Source: an uncultured Gammaproteobacteria bacterium (GTDB lineage Bacteria; Patescibacteriota; Patescibacteriia; Magasanikbacterales; UBA922). Taken from it: a stretch of DNA of 64,000 bases. The stretch covers positions 64,446-128,445 of the forward strand of contig CAYQNA010000001.1 in assembly GCA_964418775.1 (NCBI GenBank), read 5' to 3'. This document shows, one piece after another, positions 23,258 through 57,123 of this stretch. Both the position numbers and the translations under genes were made by a program. A model generated the notes under the pieces. That model saw nothing but the letters and a program-made list of their open reading frames with translations. It did no database searches and had not been told where the DNA came from. Each line of letters starts with the position of its first letter. Position 1 is the stretch's first letter.

Positions 23258-25633
23258 TTAGAATGGCAGGGCTTTGCCTTTAGCGTCTTCCTCTTCTTCG
23301 TCTTCTAATTCCTCATCCTCGGCATCTTCGTCGTCTAGTTCGGCTTCTTTCTCATCTTCGGCCTCGGTTTCGGGCGCGCTAAAAACGTTCAGCTCCTGAC
23401 CTGTATTCATTGTACCAGATTCGCCTTCGTCTGTCACAAATACCTCGCGTGGTTTGGCACCATCAGCCGGTCCAACAATACCAGCTTGCTCTAATTCATC
23501 GAGCAAGCGGGCCGCGCGTGCGTAGCCCACCTTCATGCGGCGTTGCAACAGCGAGGCGCTAGCTTTACCAGCCTGGATAACAAAACGTTTGGCATCTTCA
23601 AACAATGCATCTTGCTCGTCAGTTGGGCCGCCGAACATACTACCTGTCGCACTGCCAGTTTGTGAACCAACAATTGATTCATCGTACTCTGGCTCTTCGT
23701 CACCTTTAAGGTAATCAACCACACGCTTCATTTCTTCTTCAGAAATAAATGCACCTTGAATGCGCACTGGGCGCGACAATTCCGCACATGAATACAACAT
23801 GTCACCACGGCCTAATAGTTTTTCCGCACCAGGCGAATCTAAAATCGTGCGTGAGTCAATCACCGACGCAACCGAGAACGCAATGCGGCCTGGAATATTG
23901 GCCTTCATTAAACCAGTAATTACGTCAACACTTGGACGTTGTGTGGCGACAATCAAATGAATACCGACCGCACGAGCCATTTGCGCTAAACGAATAATGC
24001 CAGATTCAATTTCATTTGCAGCTGCGGCCATTAAGTCGGCCAATTCATCAATTACAAAAACAATGTAAGGAATTTTCGCTTCAGGATGTTTTTGATTGTA
24101 TGAACCAATGTCGCGACTACCAACTGAAGCCAGCAACTCAAACCGACGTTCCATTTCACCAATTGTCCACTTGAGCGCGTTTACGGTTTTTTGCACATTT
24201 GTAATTACGGGCGTCAGCAAATGTGGAATGCCATTATATAGCGTTAATTCAACGCGTTTTGGATCCACCATAATTAAGCGCAATGTTTCAGCCGTGTTTT
24301 GGTACAACAAGCCCATGATAATTGTGTTCATGCACACGGTTTTACCCGAACCAGTCGCACCAGCCACGAGCAAGTGGGGGAGGCGGGGTAAATCACCAAA
24401 CCATACTTTGCCCGCCACGTCTTTTCCGAGCAACAACTTGATATTGTGGTTGCGTTGACGGAAATCTTTGTCTTCGAGCAATTCTTTGAAGCTGACGAGC
24501 GCGGTTTTTTCATTTGGTACTTCTACACCCACCAGCGACTTGCCCGGAATTGGGGCTTCAATACGAATTGGATGTGCGGCAAGCGCGAGCGCTAAGTCAT
24601 TGCTTAGGCCGGTAATGCGCGACAATTTTACACCTGCGGCTGGTTTCATGGTGTATTGGGTCACAGTCGGTCCCACGCGCACTTCGCCCATGTCCACGTC
24701 AATGTTGAATTGTTCAAACGTATCTTTGATAATAGCGGCATTCGCATCAATATCACCGCTCGTTGGTTTGCCACGTTTATCAGATAACAAATCAAGTGGT
24801 GGCAAATTTTTGATCACCACTTTTTTGGACCACACATCATTGGCCGCTGGTTCTTCTGTTTCCTCATCCTCGTCTTCTTCCTCATCACCGTTTCGCACTA
24901 CCAATGCTTTTTTCTGGAATTGTGGTGCACCGGTTGTTTCCTCGGTTTCCTCGTCTTCCTCAGACTCCTCGTCTTCTTCACTTTCTTCCTCTTCTTCTGG
25001 TTCTTCCTCATCGTACTCTTCGTCATCATTAGCTACACGTACGCGCGCCATTTGTTTTTGTTCACTTGGCACAAAAATTCGGTGTACACCGCGGGCAATA
25101 GCCTGACCAAGGCCCACAAAAATCGATAACACCGCGCGATACATGTCCAAAAAACTGCCGATGAAGGGCTGAAACACGAGTAACACGCCCACCAGTGCCA
25201 AAGCAATCAATACAATCCACGCTGCAATCATGCCAAAGTATGTTTGCAACAACCAGGCTGCCATACCAAGCACGCCACCACCTTGGCCAGCGAGTGCTGC
25301 GTCCCACATTGCATCAGGTGCAAATTGCAAATGAAACAAACTGCAAACCGAAATAAAAAATAACAATCCGCCGAGCGCATGGGTCGGGTGATATCGGTAA
25401 TCTTTGCCAAGCACCATGAACCACGTAATGAGCAAGATTGCGGGTGGCACAGCATAACGCATGCCGCCAAACAGTGCGCTCAGTACATAATCATTCAGCA
25501 TAATGCCCACCACGCCTGCTTTGCCAAAAAAACTAAGCGTAATAATAATTGCAGCCAAAGCAAGTATAACCACAATAATCCCACGCGAGAGCGTAGGGTT
25601 AAGCATGGAATCAGACTGCCGCCGTCGTGGCAT
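23258..25633 (-). CDS. ftsK: DNA translocase FtsK/SpoIIIE
   Basis: N-terminal TM domain. Motor domain with Walker A GATGSGKTV, Walker B VFVIDELADL and ATQRPSVDVITG. C-terminal gamma winged-helix (LLQRRMKVGYARAARLLDELEQAGIVG). Unusual poly-acidic linker and C-terminal acidic tail. Confidence 0.93.
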   Translation of the reverse strand: MPRRRQSDSMLNPTLSRGIIVVILALAAIIITLSFFGKAGVVGIMLNDYVLSALFGGMRYAVPPAILLITWFMVLGKDYRYHPTHALGGLLFFISVCSLFHLQFAPDAMWDAALAGQGGGVLGMAAWLLQTYFGMIAAWIVLIALALVGVLLVFQPFIGSFLDMYRAVLSIFVGLGQAIARGVHRIFVPSEQKQMARVRVANDDEEYDEEEPEEEEESEEDEESEEDEETEETTGAPQFQKKALVVRNGDEEEDEDEETEEPAANDVWSKKVVIKNLPPLDLLSDKRGKPTSGDIDANAAIIKDTFEQFNIDVDMGEVRVGPTVTQYTMKPAAGVKLSRITGLSNDLALALAAHPIRIEAPIPGKSLVGVEVPNEKTALVSFKELLEDKDFRQRNHNIKLLLGKDVAGKVWFGDLPRLPHLLVAGATGSGKTVCMNTIIMGLLYQNTAETLRLIMVDPKRVELTLYNGIPHLLTPVITNVQKTVNALKWTIGEMERRFELLASVGSRDIGSYNQKHPEAKIPYIVFVIDELADLMAAAANEIESGIIRLAQMARAVGIHLIVATQRPSVDVITGLMKANIPGRIAFSVASVIDSRTILDSPGAEKLLGRGDMLYSCAELSRPVRIQGAFISEEEMKRVVDYLKGDEEPEYDESIVGSQTGSATGSMFGGPTDEQDALFEDAKRFVIQAGKASASLLQRRMKVGYARAARLLDELEQAGIVGPADGAKPREVFVTDEGESGTMNTGQELNVFSAPETEAEDEKEAELDDEDAEDEELEDEEEEDAKGKALPF

Positions 25634-25776
25634 AGAAGGTTAAAGACTGACCAGAATTATAACACAAAATTTGTGAGGTGAGTAGTTTGGCGATGGCTTG
25701 ACAAACAAGTGTGTTTAATTTACGATTATCCGCCGTGCGTTCACATTCACGGTATAGGTACAGGAGAAACGGAGCA

Positions 25777-26385
25777 ATGGATATCGCAAGCACAGAAAAG
25801 GGCCGAGCAGCGGCGAGCAAAATCCAGCAACAACGGATGGAGCACGCAAAGAGGGTGCGTCAGCTCCTGGCTGGGCATTTCAGACATAGCTCTTTCACGT
25901 ACCACGAGGCCCACCGACATGTGTTGGGTCAGGGTATGAAAATCTCGTCTGGAAGTTTTCAGGCAATGTGGACTGATTTCAAAAATCTGTCTGTCCTTAC
26001 CGGCCGAGGTTGCGGGCCGGGTCAATGGCGTTTCGATCCGGACGTGTACTTTGACCGGTACCGGCAGTCGATCGACTGTCCGGCACTGTCTGAGTCTGCG
26101 CCAGAATCGGTAGTGGATCCACCATCTTTACCACGTCGACCAGAGAGTCTCCACGAGCTACGCAAGCACTTGCCTGCGCTGTTGGATATTTTGCCCACCG
26201 GTCTGGTCATCAAGAGCTTACGTAAAGTCAGAGGCTCAGATAAAGCCGAGACAGGGCAAATCAAACGACTCCGGCGAATTCTAGAATTACGGATGTCTGG
26301 CTTGAGCGATTCGGAAAAGGAAGAACTTCTTACCGAGCTGCTCGTCAGGATAGCTGACCGTATCCCACCACATTCGGCTGATTGA
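25777..26385 (+). CDS. Hypothetical protein (Arg-rich, GC-rich gene)
   Basis: ATG at 25777 is preceded by AGGAGA about 10 nt upstream. Product is 202 aa, basic, with no recognised motif. Composition is markedly GC-richer than the AT-rich island downstream. Confidence 0.45.
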   Translation: MDIASTEKGRAAASKIQQQRMEHAKRVRQLLAGHFRHSSFTYHEAHRHVLGQGMKISSGSFQAMWTDFKNLSVLTGRGCGPGQWRFDPDVYFDRYRQSIDCPALSESAPESVVDPPSLPRRPESLHELRKHLPALLDILPTGLVIKSLRKVRGSDKAETGQIKRLRRILELRMSGLSDSEKEELLTELLVRIADRIPPHSAD

Positions 26386-26580
26386 AATCCAATCGGCCAA
26401 TCCCAAAAACACACCACTAATGGTGTGTTTTTAATTTGCATAATTTTAATTATATAAATTTTTTATAATTAAAAATATCCGGACCACTTTGAATTTCTGA
26501 AGCTTTTTGATTCCGTCGTGTCAACTGAGTCATGAGGCGGCAAGATTTAGGGAAAAAACTTCTCGCGCAGTAGACTGATT

Positions 26581-27681
26581 TTATGGATACGACTTAATGT
26601 TTTTTAGTCTTGGATACGGAATAACGTCTTTTATATCGTCTCTGCATAGCAGCCACGTAATATATCTTTCTATTCCCATGCCAAATCCTGCGGTGGAAGA
26701 ATACTGTGGCATGTCGCGTAAGTTTATATACCAATAGTATGGATCCGGTGGTATGTTTTGTCGCTTTAATGATTCGTAACATTCAACTGCTCTATCTTGC
26801 CTTTGACCACAACCAACTACTTCACCTCCAAATGAAAACTCTGTTAATGGGGGAAATATTAAATCAGCATTTAATACTTGGTCAGTATTTTTAGGATCTG
26901 GTTTTTGATAGAAAGGGACTCTGTCTCTGTCAAAATTAGTAATCCAAAAAGGTTCATTTGGAGAAAATATCTTTGATAACTCAATTTCTCCGATACTAGA
27001 AATATCTCTTCCATGATCTGTGTAATTTATATATTTTGTATAGCCATGCTCTTCAAGAATTTTTATTGCAGAATTAAAATCTATTTTTTTAAAAGATTTT
27101 AGGGATGCCAGTATTTTCATTGCCTGTTTAGAATGTTCAGGCGAACCACTTAAGCAATGTATTAAAAATGGTATATCTAGCATTGTTTGAGTGATATATT
27201 TTATATATTTTTCAACCAATTGCATGATGTCCGTCAAATTACCCCGCATTTCTGCCTCGCAGTGGAAAAATTGATTAAGGTGTCGTTTGTCAGGTTTCTC
27301 CCCTCGCATCGATGGTAAATAACAGTAGAGCAAATTAAAATTATTCATGAGAATTGGCTCAAAACCAAACTGTGATGAATCTACTAGAAATGTATCTAGG
27401 TTTCCAAACTGTATAGCGACAGCTTCACTGTCTGATCCTGGACCCATAGGACTGGATACAGAAGGAGTAAGCATAAACAAATCAACATTTATTCCATTCT
27501 GTTGGACAGAAAAAAAATCATCAGAGGCAAGTTTTAATACATGACGTAAATATAATATTGCATTCCAATATTTGTCTGTCGCTAGATCTTCGGTGTGACT
27601 TTTTGGATCGTATTTTGGCGGTTCCGTACCCCCTGCTTTTTCAAATAATTTGTTAATTTTTCTAAGCAAATCTTGGTTCAT
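26581..27681 (-). CDS. AsnRS-like class IIb aaRS catalytic-core paralog (lacks N-terminal OB anticodon-binding domain; archaeal AS-AR asparagine-synthetase-like)
   Basis: The C-terminus EFSFGGEVVGCGQRQ ... DPYYWYINLRDMPQYSSTAGFGMGIERYITWLLCRDDIKDVIPYPR aligns to the AsnRS motif 3 region (ELSSGSQRIH ... [30 protein letters not shown] ... VRDVIPFPR). The N-terminus aligns to the start of the catalytic domain, not to an OB fold. 366 aa, roughly 30% GC. Confidence 0.75.
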   Translation of the reverse strand: MNQDLLRKINKLFEKAGGTEPPKYDPKSHTEDLATDKYWNAILYLRHVLKLASDDFFSVQQNGINVDLFMLTPSVSSPMGPGSDSEAVAIQFGNLDTFLVDSSQFGFEPILMNNFNLLYCYLPSMRGEKPDKRHLNQFFHCEAEMRGNLTDIMQLVEKYIKYITQTMLDIPFLIHCLSGSPEHSKQAMKILASLKSFKKIDFNSAIKILEEHGYTKYINYTDHGRDISSIGEIELSKIFSPNEPFWITNFDRDRVPFYQKPDPKNTDQVLNADLIFPPLTEFSFGGEVVGCGQRQDRAVECYESLKRQNIPPDPYYWYINLRDMPQYSSTAGFGMGIERYITWLLCRDDIKDVIPYPRLKNIKSYP

Positions 27682-27688
27682 AAAATAA

Positions 27689-28675
27689 CTAGTGTGTAGT
27701 AATTATTAAAGAAACTTTGTCATTAATTGCCGATATTCTTGCCGTGCCCCCTATGGGAAATGTGGCGATCGGCATGGTGTGTCCTAATGTCATATTGGCA
27801 ACAATCGGTACAGACGTAAGTTCCTTTTTTGCTGCAATAATTTTCTTTAAAAAATCGGGTGTAATTTTTGTGATTTTTTTAAAGCGACCTATTACAATAC
27901 CCTTAATACCATTGAAATTGGGTAATTGAATAATTGATTGCAATAAGCGGTCAAAAATCATTGGGTTTATTTCCTCGTCCTCTTCTAAGAGTAATATTGA
28001 ATTTTCAAGTGATGGGAAATATTGTGTTCCTTGTAAGGAAGCAAAACAGCGCATATGTCCACCAATCAATGTTCCGGTTGCTTCGCCAGCTTTAATAATA
28101 TCAAAACCATTTGATTGGATGAATTCCCTTTTTTCTTGATCCAAGTACCAATCATCATCGCTCCAAAATTCGGAAGGGTTGATTTGATATTGGCCATCCT
28201 GCATACAACATTTCTCAAAGTATTCTTTGCTATAATCAAACCCTTTTTTTATGGCCCATGAAGAAAAATGTGGGCCATTACACCCCACCAATCCTGTTTT
28301 TGCATAAATTGCATTAGTTAGAACCGTTATATCTGAATAACCGCAAAGATATTTTGGATTTGATTTAATTAAATCATAATCAAGATAATCTAATAGTTGG
28401 TTTGAGTTATATCCGCCTATAGTCGTGAGTATTCCATCGACAGATGGATCTGAAAATGCATCATGCAAATCTTGCACCCTTGATTCAACTGATGAAGAAA
28501 AGAATTCATTAAATTCATTCACGTTTTTTCCAAAACTTACCCTAAACCCCGCATTTGCAAGTGCCTTTTCGGCTAATTTTACGGTGTCATTTGAAAGTAT
28601 TTTCATACTTCTAGAAGGAGCGATAACTCTAATATGCGAACCCTTTTTTAATTTTTTAGGTAGGATTGTTTCCAT
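27689..28675 (-). CDS. Peptidase S66 family LD-carboxypeptidase (LdcA/MccF-like)
   Basis: Nucleophile motif CGYSDITVL, His in LGHTMP, the acidic catalytic-Glu region LLLEEDEE, and N-terminal IRVIAPS. Start chosen at ATG 28675 (METILPKK...), 7 nt after the upstream stop. The track ORF extends to 28825. Confidence 0.75.
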   Translation of the reverse strand: METILPKKLKKGSHIRVIAPSRSMKILSNDTVKLAEKALANAGFRVSFGKNVNEFNEFFSSSVESRVQDLHDAFSDPSVDGILTTIGGYNSNQLLDYLDYDLIKSNPKYLCGYSDITVLTNAIYAKTGLVGCNGPHFSSWAIKKGFDYSKEYFEKCCMQDGQYQINPSEFWSDDDWYLDQEKREFIQSNGFDIIKAGEATGTLIGGHMRCFASLQGTQYFPSLENSILLLEEDEEINPMIFDRLLQSIIQLPNFNGIKGIVIGRFKKITKITPDFLKKIIAAKKELTSVPIVANMTLGHTMPIATFPIGGTARISAINDKVSLIITTH

Positions 28676-28682
28676 ATATTTA

Positions 28683-29789
28683 TTAAATATTTTCTTTAAT
28701 TGCTGACAAGAGGAATCCTTCTTCAGGAGACAGCGCATCCTGTATAAGAATTTTTTTTTCAATTTCTGGAATATACGAACTAATAAATTCTGACCCCTGA
28801 TGATTAATCCCTCGGCACTCTTCAAATTCTCGCATCATCTTTATTGTTGCTTTGGTTGATATTTTGAATTTATTTTTAAAATAAATCATTGCTCTTAGGT
28901 AAGATCTCAGAATTCGTTCTCTATTTTTATTTGCAGACGGCCGTAATCCTTCTGAGAGTAACATGCTAGATGTAATAATTGTATCCTCAAATTTAAATTT
29001 TAGTGGATCGTTAATCTTTTGAATGCCCAAAACAGGATTTGCAGAATTCACATGGTCAAGTGAAAAAAAATGTTTAAGAATAGTTGACGTGCCTAGAGCG
29101 AGCTCAACACCTAATTGTTTTTCGTTGTTTTCTAAAACAATCAAGTTGCCTATATCATGAAGAACCCCTTCTTTTTTAATGGAATAATTAAAATTTCTAC
29201 CCCACACACCGTTAACACCAACTTTATGTCTGTAGTATTTTTCAGGCATGGTGGTATCATCAAAACTTATACCTAAATTGGTATAAGTTTTTGCAAGCCG
29301 ATACAAATCTTTATCAGTATTATTTACTCGCAAAACTAGATTTTCTTTTGGTATATTTATAACATTTAACAAATAATCTAATGATTGGTCGCATAATTCA
29401 GATATTTTCTCGGGTATAACCAAAACACCCAAACTTTTAAAATAAGAGCCCCATGCTGGCACAATTGAGTCATTAAATATTTTTTGTAAATTTTGAGTTC
29501 TTACGCATTGCTGCGACATGACCAATCCGTTTTTAGGTATTTTGTTTTCCAAAAAATACTTTTTCATTGGGCTAATGTGTGAGCCAACAAATCTTACCGT
29601 TGGATCTATGCCTGAAGTAATGGTAACTGAGGGTATCTCCTTATATCCTTTTTCAGAAAAAAAGTCTATAAACGCCCGTATCATTTTTTCCGTATATTCA
29701 TGCATTTCTTCGGGGGCTGGCTTATATTCGCCAAATCCATAATCGAAAAGTGATTTATTAAAGGCAGGCTTTTTTGTATTTTTAATCAT
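28683..29789 (-). CDS. AlaRS-like class II aaRS catalytic (aminoacylation) domain paralog, truncated (no editing or C-Ala domains)
   Basis: IRAFIDFFSEKGYKEIPS ... DPTVRFVGSHISPMKKYFL ... SQQCVRTQN ... WGSYFKSLG parallels the AlaRS N-terminus (IRQAFLDFFHSKGH.VV.SS ... DPTLLFTNAGMNQFK ... SQRCVRAGG ... HHTFFEMLGNFSFG). About 368 aa from ATG 29789. AT-rich. Confidence 0.7.
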   Translation of the reverse strand: MIKNTKKPAFNKSLFDYGFGEYKPAPEEMHEYTEKMIRAFIDFFSEKGYKEIPSVTITSGIDPTVRFVGSHISPMKKYFLENKIPKNGLVMSQQCVRTQNLQKIFNDSIVPAWGSYFKSLGVLVIPEKISELCDQSLDYLLNVINIPKENLVLRVNNTDKDLYRLAKTYTNLGISFDDTTMPEKYYRHKVGVNGVWGRNFNYSIKKEGVLHDIGNLIVLENNEKQLGVELALGTSTILKHFFSLDHVNSANPVLGIQKINDPLKFKFEDTIITSSMLLSEGLRPSANKNRERILRSYLRAMIYFKNKFKISTKATIKMMREFEECRGINHQGSEFISSYIPEIEKKILIQDALSPEEGFLLSAIKENI

Positions 29790-29870
29790 ATTATAGTAGT
29801 ATGAAGTATAAAATACTACACTAACATTATGCCTATTCAGAATGAAAAATACAATATTAGTATTATTAAC

Positions 29871-30821
29871 ATGGAGACACATCCTAACCTAAAATCTATT
29901 TCGGAATTAGTTCAACTTAAAATAGGTGATATTCTTGATTTTAAAAAGATGTCCGGCGGAAGTAATGAAATTTTTTATATTAAAACCAATCATGGCGAGT
30001 TTATTGTAAAAATATACAATGAAGACAGCTCACAAAGAACTAATTTAAGTCGAGAAATACAAATGTCTAGCATATTGAAAGATTTTCCTGAAATAAGAAG
30101 TCTGGTTTTTTCTGATACAACAAGAAGTCAGATACCGTATGAGTTTGCAATATTTGAATATGTGGACGGCCAAACCTTACGATTTCTCGTTGAAAACAAT
30201 CTTTTAACAGATGAACAATTAGAAGTAATTGCTGATCAGATTTTTGATTTAATTAAAAGAATTATAGAAATTGCAACAAAAAAGTTTGGACAGCTGGATG
30301 AAAGTGGTTTGATAGGGACGTCTCAATCTTGGGTTGATTTTTTGGGTGGCATGCAAGATCCGACTACAAAAACATTTGAAAATAGTAACCTTTTCCCGGA
30401 CAAAGAATATTTAATACCGCAAGCAGTACTGGATAAACACAAAAGTGTATTTGAGCTAGATGATCCAAGATTGATCCCGATGGATTTAAATATAGACAAT
30501 ATAATTGTCACTCCCGATCAAAAAATAAAGTTTATAGACCCAGAAACTTTTTGGAGCGGTGATCCATTATGCGCATTTGCTCAATTTTATGCCCTAACAA
30601 AGGGCACCATATTAGGTGATAAATTTTTTGGGAATTTGGAGCTTTCACCAGATGATGAGTTCAAAGTTCGACTTTATGCACTCCTAGATAATCTGAATGT
30701 TCTTGCCTTTATAACGAGGGTTAATCCAGAAGGTGCTAAAGAAGCAAAGCCATATGGAAACCCAAACAAATTTTTTGATTTGATAAACGAGAATGTAAAA
30801 TTCTTTGAACAAAGTTTATAA
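29871..30821 (+). CDS. APH/choline-kinase-fold small-molecule kinase (aminoglycoside-phosphotransferase-like)
   Basis: Brenner-type catalytic loop PMDLNIDNIIV and metal-binding FIDPE. Protein-kinase-like fold length (about 316 aa from METHPNLK). Divergent from the AlaRS-like gene with an 80-nt AT-rich intergenic region. Confidence 0.6.
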   Translation: METHPNLKSISELVQLKIGDILDFKKMSGGSNEIFYIKTNHGEFIVKIYNEDSSQRTNLSREIQMSSILKDFPEIRSLVFSDTTRSQIPYEFAIFEYVDGQTLRFLVENNLLTDEQLEVIADQIFDLIKRIIEIATKKFGQLDESGLIGTSQSWVDFLGGMQDPTTKTFENSNLFPDKEYLIPQAVLDKHKSVFELDDPRLIPMDLNIDNIIVTPDQKIKFIDPETFWSGDPLCAFAQFYALTKGTILGDKFFGNLELSPDDEFKVRLYALLDNLNVLAFITRVNPEGAKEAKPYGNPNKFFDLINENVKFFEQSL

Positions 30822-30833
30822 AATGCAACGTCC

Positions 30834-32123
30834 ATGGAAAAAGTTTTAATTATTGGCAGCGCCACAAGTCGTGAATATGCTCTTGTTAGAGAGTTGTCAG
30901 TTTATTGTAAATGTAAAGTGAGTGCTTATTTATGGAGGGATAGTCATTTTATTAAAAATCATTGTACCAATTATGAAGTTGGCGATGTTCAGGATATTGA
31001 TAGAATTATTCAGTTTACTAAAAAGGTAAAGCCTGATTTTGTTATTGTTACACAGGGTGAAGCAATGCAAGTTGGAATCAGAAACCACTTAGATTCTATC
31101 AACATACCGTGTATATCGCCGACAAAAGAGCAAAGTAAATTAGAAAATAGTAAGATTTTTTGTCGACAATTTATTAAAGAGATAAACGAACACTTTGTAC
31201 CAAAACACAAAGCGTTCGACGTAAAAAATATTGCTGATTTAGATGGTTATATTAATGAATTAAAATCTGACAAGGTAGTATTAAAATTTGATGGACTCAT
31301 GAACTCTGAAGGGGTGAAGATTTATAACTTGAAAAAAGATTCAAAAAAAGATTTAAAAAATCAAGCAAATACATGGATTAAAAAAGTCAACGGCAAAATA
31401 GTTGTGGAAGAATTTGTTGAAGGAGATGAAGTTTCAATAATGAGTTTTGTCGATGGCACGAATATTGTACACATGCCCCCTGTTAAAAATTATAAGAAAA
31501 TCTGGGAAGGTGATGGTGGCGATAATACTTCTGGAATGGGTTCAATTACGATTGGCAAAACATTGGGTTTTTTAACAAATAAAGACGTCCTCAAATTAGA
31601 AGAAGTTAATAACCTAGTGTTTGAGAAAATAAAAAAGGATTTTTCAGAAAAATATATAGGTATATTGATGGGTGAATTCATAATTAATAATGGGGAAATT
31701 AAGGTTATTGAGTATAATACACGTTTTGGTAATCCTTCAACAATAAATATTTTAAATCTGTTAGATACTAGTTTTTTAGAAATTTGTAAATCAATGATAA
31801 GTGGTACGCTAAATAATACGCCTATTAAATGGAAAAATTTAGCATCAGTTTCTGTGTCGGTTGTACCAAAAGGTTATCCGTACTCAAAAGAAAATGTTGG
31901 AAAAAAAATAAATTTAACCAAACTAGAAAAAGAAGAACTGGGGCATATATTTTTTGCAAGCTTAAATGTGGATTCTAATAAAGATATCACACTTATGAAT
32001 TCAAGAAATTTAACAGTTTGTGTTGTTGGAGAAGAAATAAATAATTGCCGAAGCAGAATAATAAAAATTTTAGATAAAATTGGTGGGCCTATATATTTTA
32101 GAAAAGATATAGGAACTTTTTAA
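30834..32123 (+). CDS. PurD-like ATP-grasp ligase (phosphoribosylamine--glycine ligase homolog)
   Basis: MEKVLIIGSATSREYALVRELS matches MKVLVIGNGGREHALAWK. DGGDNTSGMGS matches DKDTGPNTGGMG. IKVIEYNTRFGNPST matches PKVIEFNCRFGDPET. The C-terminal GGPIYFRKDIG matches CFCRKDIG of PurD. Confidence 0.7.
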   Translation: MEKVLIIGSATSREYALVRELSVYCKCKVSAYLWRDSHFIKNHCTNYEVGDVQDIDRIIQFTKKVKPDFVIVTQGEAMQVGIRNHLDSINIPCISPTKEQSKLENSKIFCRQFIKEINEHFVPKHKAFDVKNIADLDGYINELKSDKVVLKFDGLMNSEGVKIYNLKKDSKKDLKNQANTWIKKVNGKIVVEEFVEGDEVSIMSFVDGTNIVHMPPVKNYKKIWEGDGGDNTSGMGSITIGKTLGFLTNKDVLKLEEVNNLVFEKIKKDFSEKYIGILMGEFIINNGEIKVIEYNTRFGNPSTINILNLLDTSFLEICKSMISGTLNNTPIKWKNLASVSVSVVPKGYPYSKENVGKKINLTKLEKEELGHIFFASLNVDSNKDITLMNSRNLTVCVVGEEINNCRSRIIKILDKIGGPIYFRKDIGTF

Positions 32124-32149
32124 GGCCTTTGATTATTTAGACATAATTT

Positions 32150-32722
32150 ATGTTAAAAGTTGGGTTTGACATGGATGGAGTTATTATTGACAACACAGTG
32201 TTTAAAAGTGATTTGTACCGTCAGAAAACTGGTATAAAGCTTGAATGTTGGAAGTTTAATTCAAATGTTATTGATGATTACATAACTAATACCCCTCTTC
32301 GTAAAGAAATAGACAAAATTAGCGCCATATCTGTACATCATAAAACAACTGAACAGAACATGCGCAACATTTTATTAGAAATAAAGTCCCACGCAGACAT
32401 TTTTTTGATTTCCTCAAGAGGAAAAAGTGAAGAGGGCGTGTTGGCAGCGCGACAAACCATTAAAAATCTAAAATTAGATACTATCTTTGGAGATAATATT
32501 TTTTTTACAAAAAACGATGGAGATAAAATTGAAAAAATTAAATTTCTTGAAATTGATTTTTTTATAGAGGACAGATTCGATGTTATTAGTATGCTACCTA
32601 AAAAAACAGCCATACTATATGATCAATTTTTTCAATGGAAAAAATATAAAAAATATATTATTATTAAATCACTCTTGGACATTATTCCGTTAATTAGATT
32701 TCAGGAGTACAGTGATAACTAA
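32150..32722 (+). CDS. HAD-superfamily phosphatase, 5'(3')-deoxyribonucleotidase (NT5C)-like
   Basis: Motif I FDMDGVIID (DxDGV) at the N-terminus and length about 190 aa are typical of NT5C-like HAD nucleotidases. Confidence 0.6.
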   Translation: MLKVGFDMDGVIIDNTVFKSDLYRQKTGIKLECWKFNSNVIDDYITNTPLRKEIDKISAISVHHKTTEQNMRNILLEIKSHADIFLISSRGKSEEGVLAARQTIKNLKLDTIFGDNIFFTKNDGDKIEKIKFLEIDFFIEDRFDVISMLPKKTAILYDQFFQWKKYKKYIIIKSLLDIIPLIRFQEYSDN

Positions 32723-32724
32723 GA

Positions 32725-34014
32725 TTGGGTGATGAATGTTACTATATGATCGGTACAGGAATTATCTTAAAACCAAATGGCGATGAAATTTTTATTAAGG
32801 ATGATGAGACTTTGGAATCTCTTATAAAAACAAAAATTACGAAAGAAATGGGAGCTTACTTGCGGAGAGCAGAGTTAGGAGGAAAAGTGAATGAAAGTAT
32901 GGTTGTGCAAAAAGCTATAGATTTGGGTTATTTATCTCACACCCTAAATACAAATGACGGTAGTGCAACATTTACCTCTAAGGGGAAAATAATAAAAGAA
33001 TTGATAACACAGTGGAGTAAATCAATCGCCAAAAATAAATTACAAGCTTTAGAAGTAGAAACTCCGGATATATATAAAGCTAATAAAGTTATATTATCAA
33101 TGCAAGATCAATTCGGCGAACCCCCTTTTTATATTAATGAAGAGGAAATATTAAGACCTGCATCTGATTTTGGGGTTTTTTCTTTGTATGGAGGGAAAAT
33201 ATTACAAGAATCAATTATTCCGCACAGAATTTTTGAGCTGGCAAATTGTTTTAGGCAGGAAGACGTGAATAGGGTTGATTTATTAGCAAGACCTAGGAAA
33301 TTTTCCATGCCTGATCTACACACATTTATTCAATTGAAAGATCTAGATAATGAACTAAAAATTCAGGAAGATGTTTATCTAGATGCAATGAGATCCATTG
33401 AACTTGAGTTTCTTGTTTCTGTTAGGACAACAACAGAAGAATACACTCAATTAAAAAAACATTTTTTTTATTTAGCTCAACAAACTAATAAAGAAGTTTA
33501 TATTAATATAGTACCAAGCAGGAAACGTTATTGGACAACTAAAATTAAATTCATCTACGTAGATAGTCTTGGCAATAATTTACAATTAACTACTATACAA
33601 ACTGACCACGATTCTGCCAAACTTTTTAATATCAAATTAAAAGATACTTATCCGAGTGTGCTTCATTCGTCGCTTGGCAGTATAGAGCGGCTGATGTATG
33701 CCCTTATTGACGAAGGATTAAAGGGAAAACATTTTATGTTACCACTATGGATAAGCCCCGTTCAAGCTATGATTTTTGGGGATAAAAAAAATTTAATGAT
33801 TGGGAGATTAGTGAGATATGAAAAATGTAGTGAAACTAGTATAAAATCAAATATGTTTGAAAGCTTTTTTAAAATTGGTATTCCTTATGTAATTGATGTT
33901 GATAATAACATTGCTTATAGCAGAGATGACCAGGAACAGGCTGACATGGTAATCAATAAAATTGAAATTATTAATAAAAATTTTTTGAATCTACCTAAAT
34001 CAAATAAATTTTAA
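32725..34014 (+). CDS. ThrRS-like class IIa aaRS paralog (catalytic + anticodon-binding domains only; no N1/N2 editing domains)
   Basis: Motif 2 RIFELANCFRQEDVNRVDLLARPRKFSMPDLHTF parallels the ThrRS sequence [33 protein letters not shown]. Motif 3 GSIERLMYALIDE followed by HFMLPLWISPVQAMIFG parallels GSMERFIGILTEE ... FPTWLAPVQVVIM, the catalytic/anticodon-domain junction. The motif 1 region GKIIKELITQWSKSIAKNKLQALEVETPDIY also matches. Confidence 0.7.
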   Translation: MGDECYYMIGTGIILKPNGDEIFIKDDETLESLIKTKITKEMGAYLRRAELGGKVNESMVVQKAIDLGYLSHTLNTNDGSATFTSKGKIIKELITQWSKSIAKNKLQALEVETPDIYKANKVILSMQDQFGEPPFYINEEEILRPASDFGVFSLYGGKILQESIIPHRIFELANCFRQEDVNRVDLLARPRKFSMPDLHTFIQLKDLDNELKIQEDVYLDAMRSIELEFLVSVRTTTEEYTQLKKHFFYLAQQTNKEVYINIVPSRKRYWTTKIKFIYVDSLGNNLQLTTIQTDHDSAKLFNIKLKDTYPSVLHSSLGSIERLMYALIDEGLKGKHFMLPLWISPVQAMIFGDKKNLMIGRLVRYEKCSETSIKSNMFESFFKIGIPYVIDVDNNIAYSRDDQEQADMVINKIEIINKNFLNLPKSNKF

Positions 34015-34015
34015 T

Positions 34016-34582
34016 ATGGCGAAAATCATACTGACTGGGCCACATTATTGTGGAAAAACCACTGTACTTAGAAAATTGAAGGATTACTTTTTAGATAACC
34101 CTGAAGTGGGTTTTATTGAAAGCGATGGAAGTCGCTGTCCAATTAGTTACAAAGATGTGGATTATTTGCGAGCAAATCCCAAAACAGAAATAAACATAAC
34201 ATATTGGATGATTGCAGATAACATAAAAAGAGAGATTGAGGCAAAAAATAAATATAAAAATTTAGTATTTGATCGCTGCGTCATAGATCAGCTTGCATAC
34301 CCCGCAGAAATTACCGGTAAAGATAATTTACCAAAATCCATAAATTTATTTATACGAGAATGGCTTATATTTGAACCATACGATAAGATATTTATATTTC
34401 CCGCAAACCCTGATTTTTTGAAAGCAGGTACAAATAATACTGGAGATGTAAATTTTCAGAAAAATATTGAACAAAGATATTTAGAATTAACCAAAGAATT
34501 TAATCTTTCGTCTGAAATACTCCCCTTAGATCAAGATAGACAAATTGATTTAATTTTAAATTATTTGAAGTCTAATTTATAA
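34016..34582 (+). CDS. P-loop NTPase, nucleoside/nucleotide-kinase-like (AAA_33/dNK-like)
   Basis: Walker A GPHYCGKTT at residues 8-16. 188 aa, a size typical of small-molecule kinases. Starts 1 nt after the ThrRS-like gene stop. Confidence 0.55.
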   Translation: MAKIILTGPHYCGKTTVLRKLKDYFLDNPEVGFIESDGSRCPISYKDVDYLRANPKTEINITYWMIADNIKREIEAKNKYKNLVFDRCVIDQLAYPAEITGKDNLPKSINLFIREWLIFEPYDKIFIFPANPDFLKAGTNNTGDVNFQKNIEQRYLELTKEFNLSSEILPLDQDRQIDLILNYLKSNL

Positions 34583-34931
34583 ATTGCCTGAAGCTCGTGT
34601 TTTTGTGTAAGTTAGAAAAATATAATCCGTTTTTTTGGCGTGTCGTCAATTATGGAAATTGGCGTGCAAAAGTTACAAGATTCCATAATCGGTGGCCAAT
34701 TGAAACTTTTTATTTTTACGGTTTGCAAAAAATCCCCGCATTACGGAGACTTTCGCCCTGCACGGCTGATTATATTTTTCAAAAGTAACTCACTGATCAC
34801 TGCACCAACAAGTGGTTAAGTAATCAGTGAGGGGGAGCGTCGTGCGAAACGATTCATACTCCCGACTGTGTCATCCGCTTGCGCGATTGACTCGGGTCGG
34901 AGCGTGAGCTCCCCAACACCTCCTTAGTTGC

Positions 34932-35708
34932 CTACTCCTCCGGAATGCAGCCCTCGATGGGCTCGTTGTACCGGCACTCGTTGCCCGACCCTGCAAAGTG
35001 CAGACAAACATTCTGCAGACAGGGATCATCGGTGACCCCGCAGTCCGTATCCGTCTGGCAAGTGTCGATGCACTTCACCTCGGGCTCGGACGTGCACAGA
35101 TTGTTGCAGAACTGACCGACGCCCATGCTGGGCTGGCAGGTCGAGTCTTCCTCACAGGAGTAGAGCAGCATACCAACACTGCTCCCGTTGCAGACCTTGT
35201 CAGCTTTGCAATCCGCGTGCGTCTTGCATGGCTTGCATCCCTCCACTGTTGCGTGGGCGCAGAAACCCCCATCGCAAGTTTCAGTCGTGCAGCCCTGGCC
35301 GTCGTCGCAGTCCTCGTCGGACTGGCACTGGACCTCGCTGGCCCAGATCTCTGGTGTGTCGGTCGGCTGCGACGCTTCTTCCTCGGCCTTCTGGCTCTGG
35401 AAGTACATGATGAGGTCTTCGAGCATCTCGTCGGAGAGGGTGAACGTGCCCTGTTCCACCGAGAACATGGTGGGTGCTCCGACCTGACCTTCCTCACCCG
35501 TGAGGTCGGTACCGTCAAAACCAACGGCCGGTTCCGGCCAATCGACGCCCGGCTCACCCATGGGACCGTCGACCCCGTGGGTACCGTCGCCGTTGTTGGT
35601 CTCGTCCACGCTGTTCGCGGTGGTACACACCGGGTCCGGGCTCACGCAGTCGCGCGAGCAGGAAGAGACGAGGGCAACGAAGACGGACAGCGTGTTGAAC
35701 TTATTCAT
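34932..35708 (-). CDS. Cysteine-rich secreted lipoprotein (repeated CxxDxDC-type modules), GC-rich and probably foreign
   Basis: Signal peptide with lipobox (LVSSC). About 28 Cys in repeated motifs (CQSDEDCDDGQGC, CKTHADCKADKVC, CQTDTDCGVTDDPC). Composition is strongly GC-rich. Long ORFs on the opposite strand look like GC-driven artefacts. Confidence 0.55.
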   Translation of the reverse strand: MNKFNTLSVFVALVSSCSRDCVSPDPVCTTANSVDETNNGDGTHGVDGPMGEPGVDWPEPAVGFDGTDLTGEEGQVGAPTMFSVEQGTFTLSDEMLEDLIMYFQSQKAEEEASQPTDTPEIWASEVQCQSDEDCDDGQGCTTETCDGGFCAHATVEGCKPCKTHADCKADKVCNGSSVGMLLYSCEEDSTCQPSMGVGQFCNNLCTSEPEVKCIDTCQTDTDCGVTDDPCLQNVCLHFAGSGNECRYNEPIEGCIPEE

Positions 35709-35967
35709 GACTGACTCCGATGCGGCCGTGTAGCGGTCCGCGTTTATGCCCCACAGGGCTAGATTGGAATGGTCCGGACTGGCTGACGAGTGTCATCCTG
35801 CCCAGAGCTTTGGGAGGGTCAAGCACTACCCTGGCAAAGCTGTAGGAAGGAAAAGCCGTAAAATTTTAACCGCGGAGTATACCTTTTTTTCAACCCCTTA
35901 GGACGTCAAAAGACCGGTTAAAACCGGTCTTTCTTGGCTAGATTAAGCCTTTTTGTTGGCTGCCTCC

Positions 35968-55374: not shown

Positions 55375-57123
55375 ATGGATAAAGAACAATTGCAGGGTTT
55401 GCGGCATTCGGCCGCGCATTTGTTGGCCGCAGCCGTGGCCGAATTGTGGCCAAATGCCAAGCGCACAATTGGCCCAGCGATCGACACTGGGTTTTATTAT
55501 GATTTTGATTTTGGGGCAACCAAAATTTCGGAAACTGATTTTCCTACAATTGACGCGAAAATGCAGGAATTGGTGAAAAATTGGACCAGTTTTTCGCACC
55601 GCGAAGTAAGCAAAGACGAGGCACTCGAGTATTTTAAAGACAATGAGTATAAACAAGAATTAATTAATGAATTTGCGGGCGAGGGAAGCGCGCTCACGTT
55701 TTACACGTCGGGTAATTTTACTGATTTGTGTCGCGGCGGACATACGGAAGACCCAAGTAAAGTGCTGAAACATTTTAAATTGCTCACCATTGCAGGTGCG
55801 TATTGGCGTGGTGATGAGAAAAATAAAATGTTGACGCGCATTTATGGCACAGCGTTTGAGACTGCCGAGGGCTTGAACAATTATTTAGTTCAATTAGAAG
55901 AAGCCCGCAAACGTGACCATCGCCGTTTGGGCAAAGAGCTGGATTTGTTTGTGTTTTCCGATTTAGTTGGGCCGGGGTTGCCACTTTTCACGCCAAAAGG
56001 TGCGTTTGTGCGTCGTGAATTGCAAAAGTTTGTGAACGAATTGCAACAGGGAATTGGGTATCAGGAAGTGTGGACACCACAATTGACCAAAGCCGAACTC
56101 TTCAAAACGTCGGGCCACTATGATAAGTATAAGGAAGACATGTTCCATGCGCGTTCGAATTACAGCGAAGAGGAATTTTTCCTTAAGCCAATGAACTGCC
56201 CAATGCACACGCAATTGTTTGCGAGTCGTTCGCGCAGTTACCGCGACTTGCCGCTCCGCTACAGTGATTTTGCGAATTTGTACCGCGACGAACGTCCAGG
56301 TGAATTGTCTGGACTCACACGTTTGCGCGCGTTTTCGCAGGATGATGCACACTGCTTCTGCCGTGAAGACCAAATCGAAGCCGAGTTTTTGAATGTATCC
56401 AAAGTAATTGCCACTGCGATTGCCAAATTTGGCATGAAGTATTGGGTGCGTTTGTCGCTCTGGGACCCAAACAATCAGGCAAAATATTTAGGTTCGCCCG
56501 AAGTGTGGGAACGCGCACAGGCCAAGCTCGAAAGTATTGTGAAGCAGGTGGGCGTGGAGTACAAACGCGTGGAAGGGGACGCGGCGATTTATGGGCCAAA
56601 AATGGACTTTATTGCGGTGGACGCACTCGGTCGCGAGTGGCAAATTTCGACGATTCAGTTGGACTTTATTCAACCAGAGCGCTTTGAATTGGAGTATACC
56701 GATGCCGATGGCCAGAAGAAGCGTCCTGTGATGATCCACCGCGCGATTTTGGGCTCCCCAGAGCGTTTTATGGGTCTTTTGATCGAACATACGGCTGGGG
56801 CCCTTCCGGTGTGGCTAGCGCCTATCCAGGTGCTTCTGGCGCCTGTTTCTGGGGAGAAGCATGGTGCTGGTGCCGAGGCCATGGCGGCCGAGTGGCGCAA
56901 GGCTGGTATTCGCGTGGAAGTTGATGCGGCCAATGAAACCATTGGCAAAAAAGTGCGCAATGCGTCAGCGCAAAAAATTCCGTATATTGTGGTCGCTGGT
57001 GACCGCGAATTGTCTGGTGAATCACTTAGTGTAAAAGTTTTGGGCCAAGAAGAGCCACTCGTGATTAGTGCGGCAGACTTTGTGGCACGGGTGGTATCGG
57101 AAACACGTGAACGTAGTCGCTAA
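55375..57123 (+). CDS. thrS: Threonine--tRNA ligase (lacks N-terminal TGS/N1 domain)
   Basis: Begins with the N2 editing-domain motif RHSAAHLLAAA. Class IIa motif 2 (YRDERPGELSGLTRLRAFSQDDAHCF), motif 3 (GSPERFMGLLIEH) and an anticodon-binding domain are present. Confidence 0.93.
   Translation: MDKEQLQGLRHSAAHLLAAAVAELWPNAKRTIGPAIDTGFYYDFDFGATKISETDFPTIDAKMQELVKNWTSFSHREVSKDEALEYFKDNEYKQELINEFAGEGSALTFYTSGNFTDLCRGGHTEDPSKVLKHFKLLTIAGAYWRGDEKNKMLTRIYGTAFETAEGLNNYLVQLEEARKRDHRRLGKELDLFVFSDLVGPGLPLFTPKGAFVRRELQKFVNELQQGIGYQEVWTPQLTKAELFKTSGHYDKYKEDMFHARSNYSEEEFFLKPMNCPMHTQLFASRSRSYRDLPLRYSDFANLYRDERPGELSGLTRLRAFSQDDAHCFCREDQIEAEFLNVSKVIATAIAKFGMKYWVRLSLWDPNNQAKYLGSPEVWERAQAKLESIVKQVGVEYKRVEGDAAIYGPKMDFIAVDALGREWQISTIQLDFIQPERFELEYTDADGQKKRPVMIHRAILGSPERFMGLLIEHTAGALPVWLAPIQVLLAPVSGEKHGAGAEAMAAEWRKAGIRVEVDAANETIGKKVRNASAQKIPYIVVAGDRELSGESLSVKVLGQEEPLVISAADFVARVVSETRERSR

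Follow-up and report, generated by a model that had tools for sequence, protein, structure and literature searches.

What does the catalytic core of an alanyl-tRNA synthetase (AlaRS) do in a bacterial genome when the editing and C-Ala domains are missing? The question is raised by a 64-kb stretch of contig CAYQNA010000001.1 (the window, meaning this whole stretch; coordinates are window positions unless a locus is named by an L number), in which an AlaRS-like gene lies in a low-GC island beside genes for an S66 peptidase and an asparaginyl-tRNA synthetase (AsnRS)-like protein (Table 1). The host is a member of the Patescibacteria: the closest RecA proteins, with 81–87% identity to that of the window, bear the names Patescibacteria group or Candidatus Magasanikbacteria. 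Our best reading, which we consider to have about an even chance of being correct, is that the AlaRS-like protein is an aminoacyl transferase similar to AcmF of the ascamycin pathway that would help build an aminoacyl-nucleotide mimic. Within this reading, the involvement of an aminoacyl-nucleotide pathway is more secure than the use of an aminoacyl-tRNA donor.

The open reading frame (ORF) is confirmed as a genuine homolog of the AlaRS catalytic core, with similarity well beyond chance. Pfam tRNA-synt_2c (PF01411) matched it at E 3e-13, the 49.6 bits clearing the cut-off of 30.3, although the match spans only profile positions 2–135 of 552. AlaRS fragments in the PDB matched at E 7e-9, and the NCBIfam alaS models reached E values of about 1e-11, yet with scores far under their cut-offs (TIGR00344, 44.1 bits versus 457); AlaRS sequence models cover just the first third of the protein. 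Alignment of the family by hhalign with the canonical full-length AlaRS of an Acidimicrobiales member (L042, 866 aa), used as the alignment reference, extended over 275 columns with a probability of 96.5%. L042 had also been considered as an actinobacterial AcmF-like member and proved to be canonical. An AlphaFold2 (AF2) model built with 23 family members in the alignment has a pLDDT of 93.6 and a pTM of 0.90, and its best Foldseek matches in the PDB are AlaRS catalytic fragments (1riq, E 1.8e-15, TM 0.69); homology to the alpha subunit of glycyl-tRNA synthetase (GlyRS) was ruled out (TM 0.35). The same 368-aa product was obtained by an independent gene call on a Logan contig, and a longer ORF starting at 29882 was rejected, as it overlaps the divergent APH gene and is unsupported by homologs. 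A tblastn search of the window with full-length AlaRS revealed no other AlaRS segment and no editing or C-Ala remnant which, together with the constant length of the relatives, rules out a frameshifted or split alaS. The first-pass annotation, which had described a free-standing homolog of the AlaRS aminoacylation domain that lacks the editing and C-Ala domains, had quoted the strings RAFIDFFSEKGY and SQQCVRTQN and had raised a frameshift artefact as the case to exclude, is thus borne out by the profile, alignment and structural evidence, and both strings are present in the protein. The divergent gap upstream, given there as an AT-rich region of 80 nt, measures 39 nt.

The AlaRS-like protein is a member of a conserved family and not a broken alaS. 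A word-indexed search identified 40 relatives, all of 323–401 aa, and a hidden Markov model (HMM) search of 1.84 billion cluster representatives returned 321 clusters at E<1e-30 and 532 at E<1e-10 (counted at 50% identity), with nearly all of the 150 best matches being 300–400 aa in length. Stand-alone AlaRS homologs, previously supposed to be rare, are therefore numerous. A scan of one genome per species revealed 33 loci carrying the gene, mostly in Patescibacteria (Saccharibacteria, Paceibacterota, Staskawiczbacteria, Colwellbacteria, and Gracilibacteria), the other carriers being metagenome-assembled genomes (MAGs) of Gamma- and Alphaproteobacteria, a Calothrix plasmid, and a Magnetococcales MAG. 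Additional members are present in Draconibacterium and Kitasatospora. Among the cluster representatives, the AlaRS-like core is also found fused to a GNAT acetyltransferase, an S-adenosylmethionine (SAM) methyltransferase, an HD phosphohydrolase, or a response-regulator receiver domain (P0065, P0088, P0162, and P0107).

The active site of these proteins is remodeled. In canonical AlaRS, the adenine of ATP is sandwiched by the motif-2 Phe and the motif-3 Arg, the alpha-phosphate lies on the motif-2 Arg, and Asp235 binds the alpha-amino group of alanine. In the hhalign alignment with L042, the motif-2 Arg and Phe correspond to R97 and F117, W170 (E. coli numbering here and below) to Y186, E209, N212 and V214 to D212, N215 and I217, D235 to E229, G237 to A231, and the motif-3 Arg, seven residues past the acidic residue, to T236 with the same spacing; a comparison with what we take to be the E. 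coli AlaRS sequence yields the same mapping. W113, H188, R198, G233, and K239 complete the active-site set. Common to canonical AlaS and the window protein are thus the class II fold and the first tRNA-recognition helices, along with motif 1, both motif-2 residues (Arg and Phe), and the E209/N212-type strand. The window protein, however, is much shorter (368 versus ~870 aa), lacks the editing and C-Ala domains, and differs by Arg to Thr in motif 3, Asp235 to Glu, V214 to Ile, and Gly237 to Ala (A231).

These residues are highly conserved across the family. Among 172 aligned members, R97 and N215 are each kept in 163 and F117 in 166, position 229 is Glu in 163 and Asp in one, and the five commonest residues at position 236 are T, V, N, S, and A, not Arg. 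In the 30 members linked to an S66 gene, R97, F117, Y186, H188, R198, D212, N215, I217, E229, A231, G233, and K239 are invariant whatever the phylum or cluster type, and W113 is kept save for one Tyr and one Phe. Because the active-site set is invariant in the S66-linked members, the comparison argues for an active enzyme with one conserved reaction, in which the ATP anchor is half dismantled and little room is left for a side chain. In the helical region, a basic motif is retained, EGLRPS..NR.RILR.Y.R, which is aligned with the tRNA-recognition helix DGV.PSNE.RGYVLRR of AlaRS and corresponds to its acceptor-stem helix. The equivalent of Asn303, a reader of the G3:U70 base pair, is A286 and is variable in the family (A/G/S/N), and the protein terminates upstream of the region that holds the second reader, Asp400. 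The Arg of the CVR string, originally proposed to bind ATP, is indeed the motif-2 Arg that would contact the alpha-phosphate, but the adenine-stacking motif-3 Arg is absent. Nor does an alanine-activating site with a conserved Asp235 equivalent, as the first-pass annotation had envisaged, agree with the Glu at position 229 and the Thr at position 236, a pattern of the AcmF type.

AcmF is a truncated AlaRS-like enzyme of the ascamycin pathway in Streptomyces sp. 80H647 (Zheng et al. ACS Catal 2024, reviewed in PMC12945691). According to that account (PMC12945691), it consists of aminoacylation and tRNA-recognition domains only, is without most of the residues for ATP binding and activation, and shows the changes N219Q and D232E. 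Rather than activating alanine, AcmF transfers it from Ala-tRNA to the sulfamate nitrogen of dealanylascamycin, which occupies the adenylate site, is stacked on W100/F104, and is bound by R93; the enzyme depends on E232 and has no G3:U70 reader (PMC12945691). By this account, the window protein resembles AcmF in its truncation without editing or C-Ala domains, in the Glu that replaces Asp235 (E232 in AcmF, E229 here), in the loss of ATP-binding residues (here the motif-3 Arg) with retention of the motif-2 Arg (R93, R97), in the Trp-x3-Phe pair at the adenine site (W100/F104, W113/F117), and in the G3:U70 Asn/Asp reader not being conserved. Distant members of the family adjoin sulfotransferases, which recalls sulfamate nucleosides. 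The ascamycin link suggested by the first-pass annotation therefore stands insofar as AcmF is the closest characterized precedent found, but as described AcmF uses Ala-tRNA and not ATP-dependent activation. Since the T236/E229 pattern matches AcmF in this respect, Ala-dependent ATP-PPi exchange by the window protein is less likely. The two enzymes also differ: the helical domain is shorter in the window protein, the window is without sulfamate-pathway genes, and the partners of AcmF in the published description are AcmD, which is another full AlaRS, and the alpha/beta-hydrolase AcmE, as opposed to an MccF-type peptidase and an AsnRS-like ligase. AcmF comes from an actinomycete, while the window family is mainly patescibacterial. 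No match to AcmF by its published residue positions was present among 182 retrieved proteins.

The gene neighborhood of the AlaRS-like gene, compared over 34 non-redundant related loci, is conserved and supplies the strongest evidence. An S66 gene is adjacent in 33 of the 34 loci and an AsnRS-like gene in 27, neither of which had been mentioned in the first-pass annotation, and the common operon order is AlaRS-like, S66, AsnRS-like. Twenty loci have a SAM methyltransferase gene ahead of the AlaRS-like one, and nine carry a gene for an HD phosphohydrolase. The APH kinase, emphasized earlier as the partner, is found only in the window and one Saccharibacteria variant.

The S66 peptidase is placed by its sequence matches in the MccF clade and not in the LdcA clade. 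It matched the PDB structures of "MccF-like BA_5613" (4e5s) and Lmo1638 at E 4e-112 and 2e-101, and MccF of Bacillus anthracis and E. coli at E 3e-44 and 1.5e-33, compared with only 1e-17 to 1e-19 for LdcA-type murein carboxypeptidases; its score with NCBIfam PRK11253 (106 bits) is far under the LdcA cut-off of 378 bits. The catalytic Ser/Glu/His motifs are kept in the neighbors of all relatives. An alternative TTG start at 28825 (ORF 27689–28825, minus strand), from which the gene would run 143 nt into the 3′ part of the AlaRS-like gene, was rejected because homologs and an independent gene call favor the ATG at 28675. The AsnRS-like protein keeps motif 2, the acidic residues for Mg/ATP, motif 3, and the AsnRS-type SSQ...E element. 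In tblastn searches of all PLSDB plasmids, it matched agnA of pAgK84 with 31.8% identity over 91% (E 2e-37), which is stronger than its matches to true asnS genes (26–28%, E 1e-20 to 1e-29).

Two known systems combine comparable elements. Agrocin 84 is a Leu-AMP mimic, and the agn cluster of pAgK84 encodes AgnA, a truncated AsnRS homolog named "agrocin 84 synthetase" and proposed to make its acyl-phosphoramidate bond, together with SAM methyltransferases, the resistant leucyl-tRNA synthetase AgnB2, and the "MccF-like" AgnC5. The window has an AgnA-type AsnRS core without the anticodon domain and a homolog of AgnC5 (27% identity, E 7e-38), and SAM methyltransferases and a full-length extra aminoacyl-tRNA synthetase (aaRS) are present in related loci. 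However, agn contains no AlaRS-like gene, and the window is without a methyltransferase, an exporter, or a full-length resistant aaRS, having only a truncated threonyl-tRNA synthetase (ThrRS)-like gene. AgnC1 was considered as a counterpart of the AlaRS-like or ThrRS-like protein and rejected, as it shows no similarity (hhalign probability of 0.2% against the AlaRS-like family). In the case of microcin C, MccF hydrolyzes the amide that joins the aminoacyl and nucleotide parts, and four classes of immunity enzyme that detoxify aminoacyl-nucleotides are known, namely MccF (S66), MccG (S51), MccH (HIT), and MccE2 (GNAT). Each of the four lies next to, or is fused with, members of the AlaRS-like family: the MccF type in the window, an S51 peptidase together with a dNK-type kinase beside the Magnetococcales gene, HIT proteins linked to some members, and a GNAT joined directly to an AlaRS-like domain. 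Different from microcin C, an MccB-like ThiF domain is not found among the eight island proteins (short ORFs for MccA-type precursors were not searched), and an aminoacyl-nucleotide, if made here, would arise via aaRS-derived enzymes and not by the route of a peptide that is made on the ribosome and modified after translation (RiPP).

All lines of evidence point jointly to chemistry on nucleotides and amino acids of the aminoacyl-adenylate-mimic type, and for the AlaRS-like enzyme the most economical mechanism is that of AcmF. From these features, we infer a donor, an acceptor, a product, and possibly a use as a toxin. The AlaRS-like protein would be a catalytically active paralog of the AlaRS core that is no longer a synthetase and serves as the signature enzyme of a compact, mobile cassette, which would consist of itself, the MccF-type peptidase, the AgnA-type AsnRS-like ligase, and variable tailoring genes. 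The product would most likely be an aminoacyl-nucleotide or aminoacyl-nucleoside that acts as a stable aminoacyl-adenylate mimic of the microcin C, agrocin 84, or ascamycin type. An amine-bearing acceptor of nucleotide type (a phosphoramidate, sulfamate, or amino-nucleoside) could occupy the former ATP/AMP site, held by R97 and stacked on W113/F117. A small aminoacyl group would arrive as aminoacyl-tRNA, its alpha-amino group gripped by E229, and would then be moved onto the acceptor nitrogen by the AlaRS-like enzyme; Gly or Ala is proposed because the I217/A231/E229 pocket is tight. The MccF-type peptidase may cut the same acyl-N bond, either for self-immunity or to generate the acceptor, and the AsnRS-like enzyme, with its adenylation site intact, might form the other acyl-nucleotide bond, as proposed for AgnA.

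Table 1. Features of the low-GC island in the window.
Feature	Position	Strand	Remarks
AlaRS-like protein, 368 aa	28683..29789	minus	ATG at 29789, TAA ending at 28683; class II core and ~105-aa helical tRNA-recognition region
Low-GC island with the whole cassette	26400..34800		8.4 kb; ~31% GC versus ~48% in the flanks; between recA/ftsK and rpoB/rpoC
AsnRS/AsnA-like class II core without anticodon-binding domain, 366 aa	26581..27681	minus	AgnA-like; motifs 2 and 3 intact
S66 serine peptidase, 328 aa	27689..28675	minus	assigned to MccF clade; begins 7 nt past the AlaRS-like stop
AT-rich divergent intergenic region, 39 nt	29790..29828		separates the AlaRS-like operon from the APH operon
APH-fold small-molecule kinase, 330 aa	29829..30821	plus	PF01636, E 5e-11
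PurD-like ATP-grasp ligase (glycine-amine ligase family), 429 aa	30834..32123	plus	TIGR00877, 287.5 bits versus cut-off 288
190-aa protein, no family match	32150..32722	plus	N-terminus FDMDGVII
ThrRS-like catalytic core, 429 aa	32725..34014	plus	no editing domain; short degenerate anticodon-domain remnant
P-loop AAA_28 / dTMP-kinase-like protein, 188 aa	34016..34582	plus	family profile match

The island is real and horizontally acquired, as follows from its GC contrast, an independent assembly, and a collinear island in Saccharibacteria. At the left GC junction, an independent Logan contig matches with 100% identity; the island of the Saccharibacteria MAG (L001), which is likewise low in GC within its own genome, has 73.5% nucleotide identity over 6.1 kb; together these rule out a chimeric assembly. 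In several further genomes, the cassette is GC-poor relative to its flanks, and it often lies beside tRNA genes. Orthologs of the APH kinase (71% identical) and the PurD-like protein occupy the same positions in L001, which also has an ortholog of the 190-aa protein (67% identical); this three-gene module was found only in the window and that MAG among the loci examined, and a more distant PurD-like ortholog is present in Draconibacterium (L004). Patescibacteria are generally reported to be without de novo purine synthesis. The near-cut-off purD score within a mobile island of a Patescibacteria genome suggests that the PurD-like gene encodes a glycine-amine ligase recruited for a different substrate. 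The N-terminus of the 190-aa protein, by inference only, resembles HAD motif I. The ThrRS-like core, restricted to the window among the loci examined, keeps the motif-3 sequence GSIER and has Asp at the position of the Zn-ligand Cys; a housekeeping ThrRS of 582 aa with SAD, core, and anticodon domains is encoded 21 kb from it (55375–57123, plus strand). The island copy may be a resistant mini-ThrRS or another repurposed aaRS core. PDB sequence searches with the 190-aa protein, the APH kinase, and the P-loop protein gave nothing useful, and a promoter and terminator scan of the island found fewer sites than in shuffled controls. Outside the island, a patch of 58–63% GC (versus 48% in the background) lies immediately to its right (34800–35800) and contains an ORF (34932–35708, minus strand) for a Cys-rich and Asp/Glu-rich protein of 258 aa without a Pfam match. 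At the left border, a 224-aa protein without a family match is encoded (25711–26385; local GC up to 0.595). The FtsK homolog (23258–25633, minus strand) has long, extremely acidic low-complexity E/D runs in its linker and C-terminus.

Related loci vary around the core. An alphaproteobacterial variant has, instead of the AsnRS-like protein, a radical SAM enzyme together with a P-loop kinase and a HIT protein of 270 aa, and in L008 a cytochrome P450 (P450), a methyltransferase, and a HAD protein are encoded alongside the cassette. An actinomycete cluster, that of Kitasatospora sp. NPDC056446 (L043, JBHTRF010000003.1, 6610–16993), encodes in this order a LanB-N (PEARL-like) protein, AsnRS-like and AlaRS-like proteins, a SAM methyltransferase, a ThrRS, then an S66 peptidase, followed by a P450 and a nucleotidyltransferase, and it adjoins polyketide synthase (PKS), thioesterase, and ABC-transporter genes. 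Its extra ThrRS is full length and bona fide (530.8 bits versus a cut-off of 383.65), and a culturable organism of this type is a good candidate for product isolation. Two GC-rich members (L044, 2161–5936; L045, 2890–6157) combine a methyltransferase, two dCTP-deaminase-like (DCD) genes, the AlaRS-like gene, and a sulfotransferase, a content that hints at aminoacyl sulfamate or sulfate pyrimidine nucleosides. Full-length GlyRS genes lie beside the cassette in three Patescibacteria genomes (L013, 1872–3272 and 8870–10273, one on either side of the cassette; L027, 10076–11476; L035, 3376–4848). The cassette-linked copies are mutually 77–78% identical and 66–67% identical to the second copy, and they may serve as self-resistance copies or as suppliers of aminoacyl-tRNA. 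On plasmid pBb323S2a of Bradyrhizobium barranii (L046, 7907–11692), genes for an S66 peptidase, an AsnRS-like protein 53% identical to that of the window, a HAD protein, and a SAM methyltransferase lie by nodU and insertion sequence elements; no AlaRS-like gene is annotated on this symbiosis plasmid, which may carry a reduced or different version of the cassette. Plasmids of Pantoea agglomerans (hits H9–H14) contain AsnA/AsnRS-like sequences ~34% identical to the AsnRS-like protein of the window under genes annotated as GNAT family N-acetyltransferase, which suggests a further fusion of an aaRS core with GNAT in a plant-associated antibiotic producer.

Several observations weigh against a transferase of the AcmF kind with an aminoacyl-nucleotide mimic as its putative product. 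The proposed mechanism is an interpretation, and the likeness to AcmF was judged from published residue numbers and descriptions and not from a sequence alignment. N215 is kept in the window protein, whereas AcmF is described as having Gln there. The helical region amounts to only about half of the tRNA-recognition domain of AlaRS, and the Asn303 equivalent is variable, leaving tRNA binding putative; no dedicated tRNA gene is consistently linked to the cassette. The conserved R198, H188, and K239 could in principle rebuild an ATP site. The linked aaRS differ (GlyRS, ThrRS, or ThrRS-like) despite the invariant AlaRS-like pocket, and therefore taking the linked aaRS as the resistant target is not a coherent logic. 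The closest solved S66 relatives, BA_5613 and Lmo1638, are stand-alone genes; no exporter or transporter gene is present in the window island, which is odd for a secreted antibiotic. The PurD-like, APH, and ThrRS-like module has a role that the model would leave unexplained, and it calls for caution.

A more specific version, to which we attach only a slim chance, is that the three core genes provide a peptide-independent and previously undescribed route to N-acyl-phosphoramidate nucleotides. The AsnRS-like enzyme would perform MccB-like chemistry on free asparagine to give isoasparaginyl-AMP with an N–P bond, the MccF-type peptidase, here biosynthetic, would strip the aspartate to leave adenosine 5′-phosphoramidate, and the AlaRS-like enzyme would re-acylate the nitrogen with Gly or Ala from aminoacyl-tRNA to yield a non-hydrolyzable Gly- or Ala-AMP mimic. 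The methyltransferase, kinase, and PurD-like ligase could then decorate the product. If true, this route would supply ultra-small Patescibacteria with a home-made aaRS poison directed at hosts or competitors.

Other explanations share part of the evidence. The mechanism implied by the first-pass annotation, in which the AlaRS-like protein itself adenylates Ala or Gly and hands it to a small molecule or carrier, appears unlikely but is the main rival: R97, F117, D212/N215, and the acidic residue at the alpha-amino site are all retained, the invariant basic residues R198, K239, and H188 might stand in for the motif-3 Arg, the helical domain falls short of that of AlaRS, the cassette has no linked tRNA gene, and the neighboring AsnRS-like protein indicates that ATP-dependent ligases with an aaRS core occur in such clusters. 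However, Thr replaces the motif-3 Arg that anchors ATP in AlaRS, the commonest residues at this position in the 172 members do not include Arg, the basic acceptor-stem helix is conserved, and in AcmF, as described, the Asp to Glu change and the loss of ATP residues go with lost activation and the use of aminoacyl-tRNA. Alternatively, the island might serve only for immunity, with the AlaRS-like and AsnRS-like proteins sequestering or inactivating imported aminoacyl-adenylate mimics that the peptidase, phosphatases, and kinases degrade. All known classes of microcin C resistance enzyme are linked to the family, many MccF, MccG, and MccH homologs are stand-alone resistance genes, and neither an exporter nor an obvious precursor gene is present. 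We nevertheless consider such a decoy improbable: the AlaRS-like protein would be a poor one for an AlaRS inhibitor because T236, E229, and A231 differ from the adenylate-binding residues of real AlaRS, the AsnRS-like protein keeps all of its catalytic motifs and its relative AgnA is assigned to biosynthesis, and such partners as the methyltransferase, the P450, and the radical SAM enzyme have a biosynthetic character.

As an anti-phage or other conflict system, the cassette might instead make an intracellular modified nucleotide (a chain terminator, a signal, or a poison of translation) that serves in abortive infection and is not secreted as an antibiotic. The Draconibacterium cassette lies among CBASS-E2, HD, Fic, CTD10/MC6-7, DUF2326, and BrxR-like genes and transposases, the Magnetococcales relative adjoins a type I restriction-modification system and an Abi_C gene, and the cassette is mobile and, in the window, without an exporter. 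We regard this as a rather unlikely explanation, since a PADLOC scan gave no match for the core genes, no sensor or regulator is conserved, and the contexts with P450, PKS, LanB-like, and extra ThrRS or GlyRS genes resemble natural-product clusters. ATP-grasp and aaRS-derived enzymes build peptidoglycan bridges in some bacteria, and the S66 protein does belong to the family of LdcA (PRK11253), so that a role in cell-wall peptide metabolism could be imagined, with the peptidase as an LD-carboxypeptidase and the aaRS-like and ATP-grasp enzymes extending murein peptides. This is very improbable given the matches of E 4e-112 to 1e-33 to MccF-type structures as against the much weaker ones to the LdcA type, the lack of protection against microcin C by LdcA, and partners that are nucleotide enzymes, namely HD, HIT, dNK, DCD, nucleoside triphosphate (NTP) transferase, and sulfotransferase proteins, and not mur genes. 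Finally, a disrupted alaS fragment or a chimeric assembly might be suspected from the partial coverage by AlaRS models and the abrupt GC shift at the island borders. With hundreds of relatives of equal length that carry invariant family-specific residues, a confident full-length AF2 model, no further AlaRS segment in the window, a left GC junction reproduced independently, and a collinear island elsewhere, we give an artefact almost no credence.

Literature searches, in which the coverage of subscription journals was incomplete, found no prior description of the AlaRS-like family or of the cassette. What has been described are AcmF, agrocin 84, and the immunity enzymes of microcin C; new here is a proposed aminoacyl-nucleotide cluster of aaRS paralogs that pairs an AcmF-like protein with AgnA-like and MccF-like partners and is compact, mobile, and concentrated in Patescibacteria. 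AcmF is a recent and the sole characterized truncated AlaRS-like transferase, and it may be one case of a large and widespread family whose remodeled active site is fixed. The three-gene cassette brings together features of the systems for ascamycin, agrocin 84, and microcin C, and if an aminoacyl-adenylate mimic is made, it would represent a new, compact, and RiPP-independent way to such inhibitors and, if true, a source of enzymes for the chemo-enzymatic synthesis of aaRS inhibitors. The co-occurrence of AlaRS-like, AsnRS-like, and ThrRS-like proteins in one island points to the repeated recruitment of tRNA-synthetase cores. Patescibacteria are usually viewed as nearly without biosynthetic capacity and as living attached to host cells; the cassette would, if this reading is true, be among the few specialized-metabolite pathways in these bacteria.

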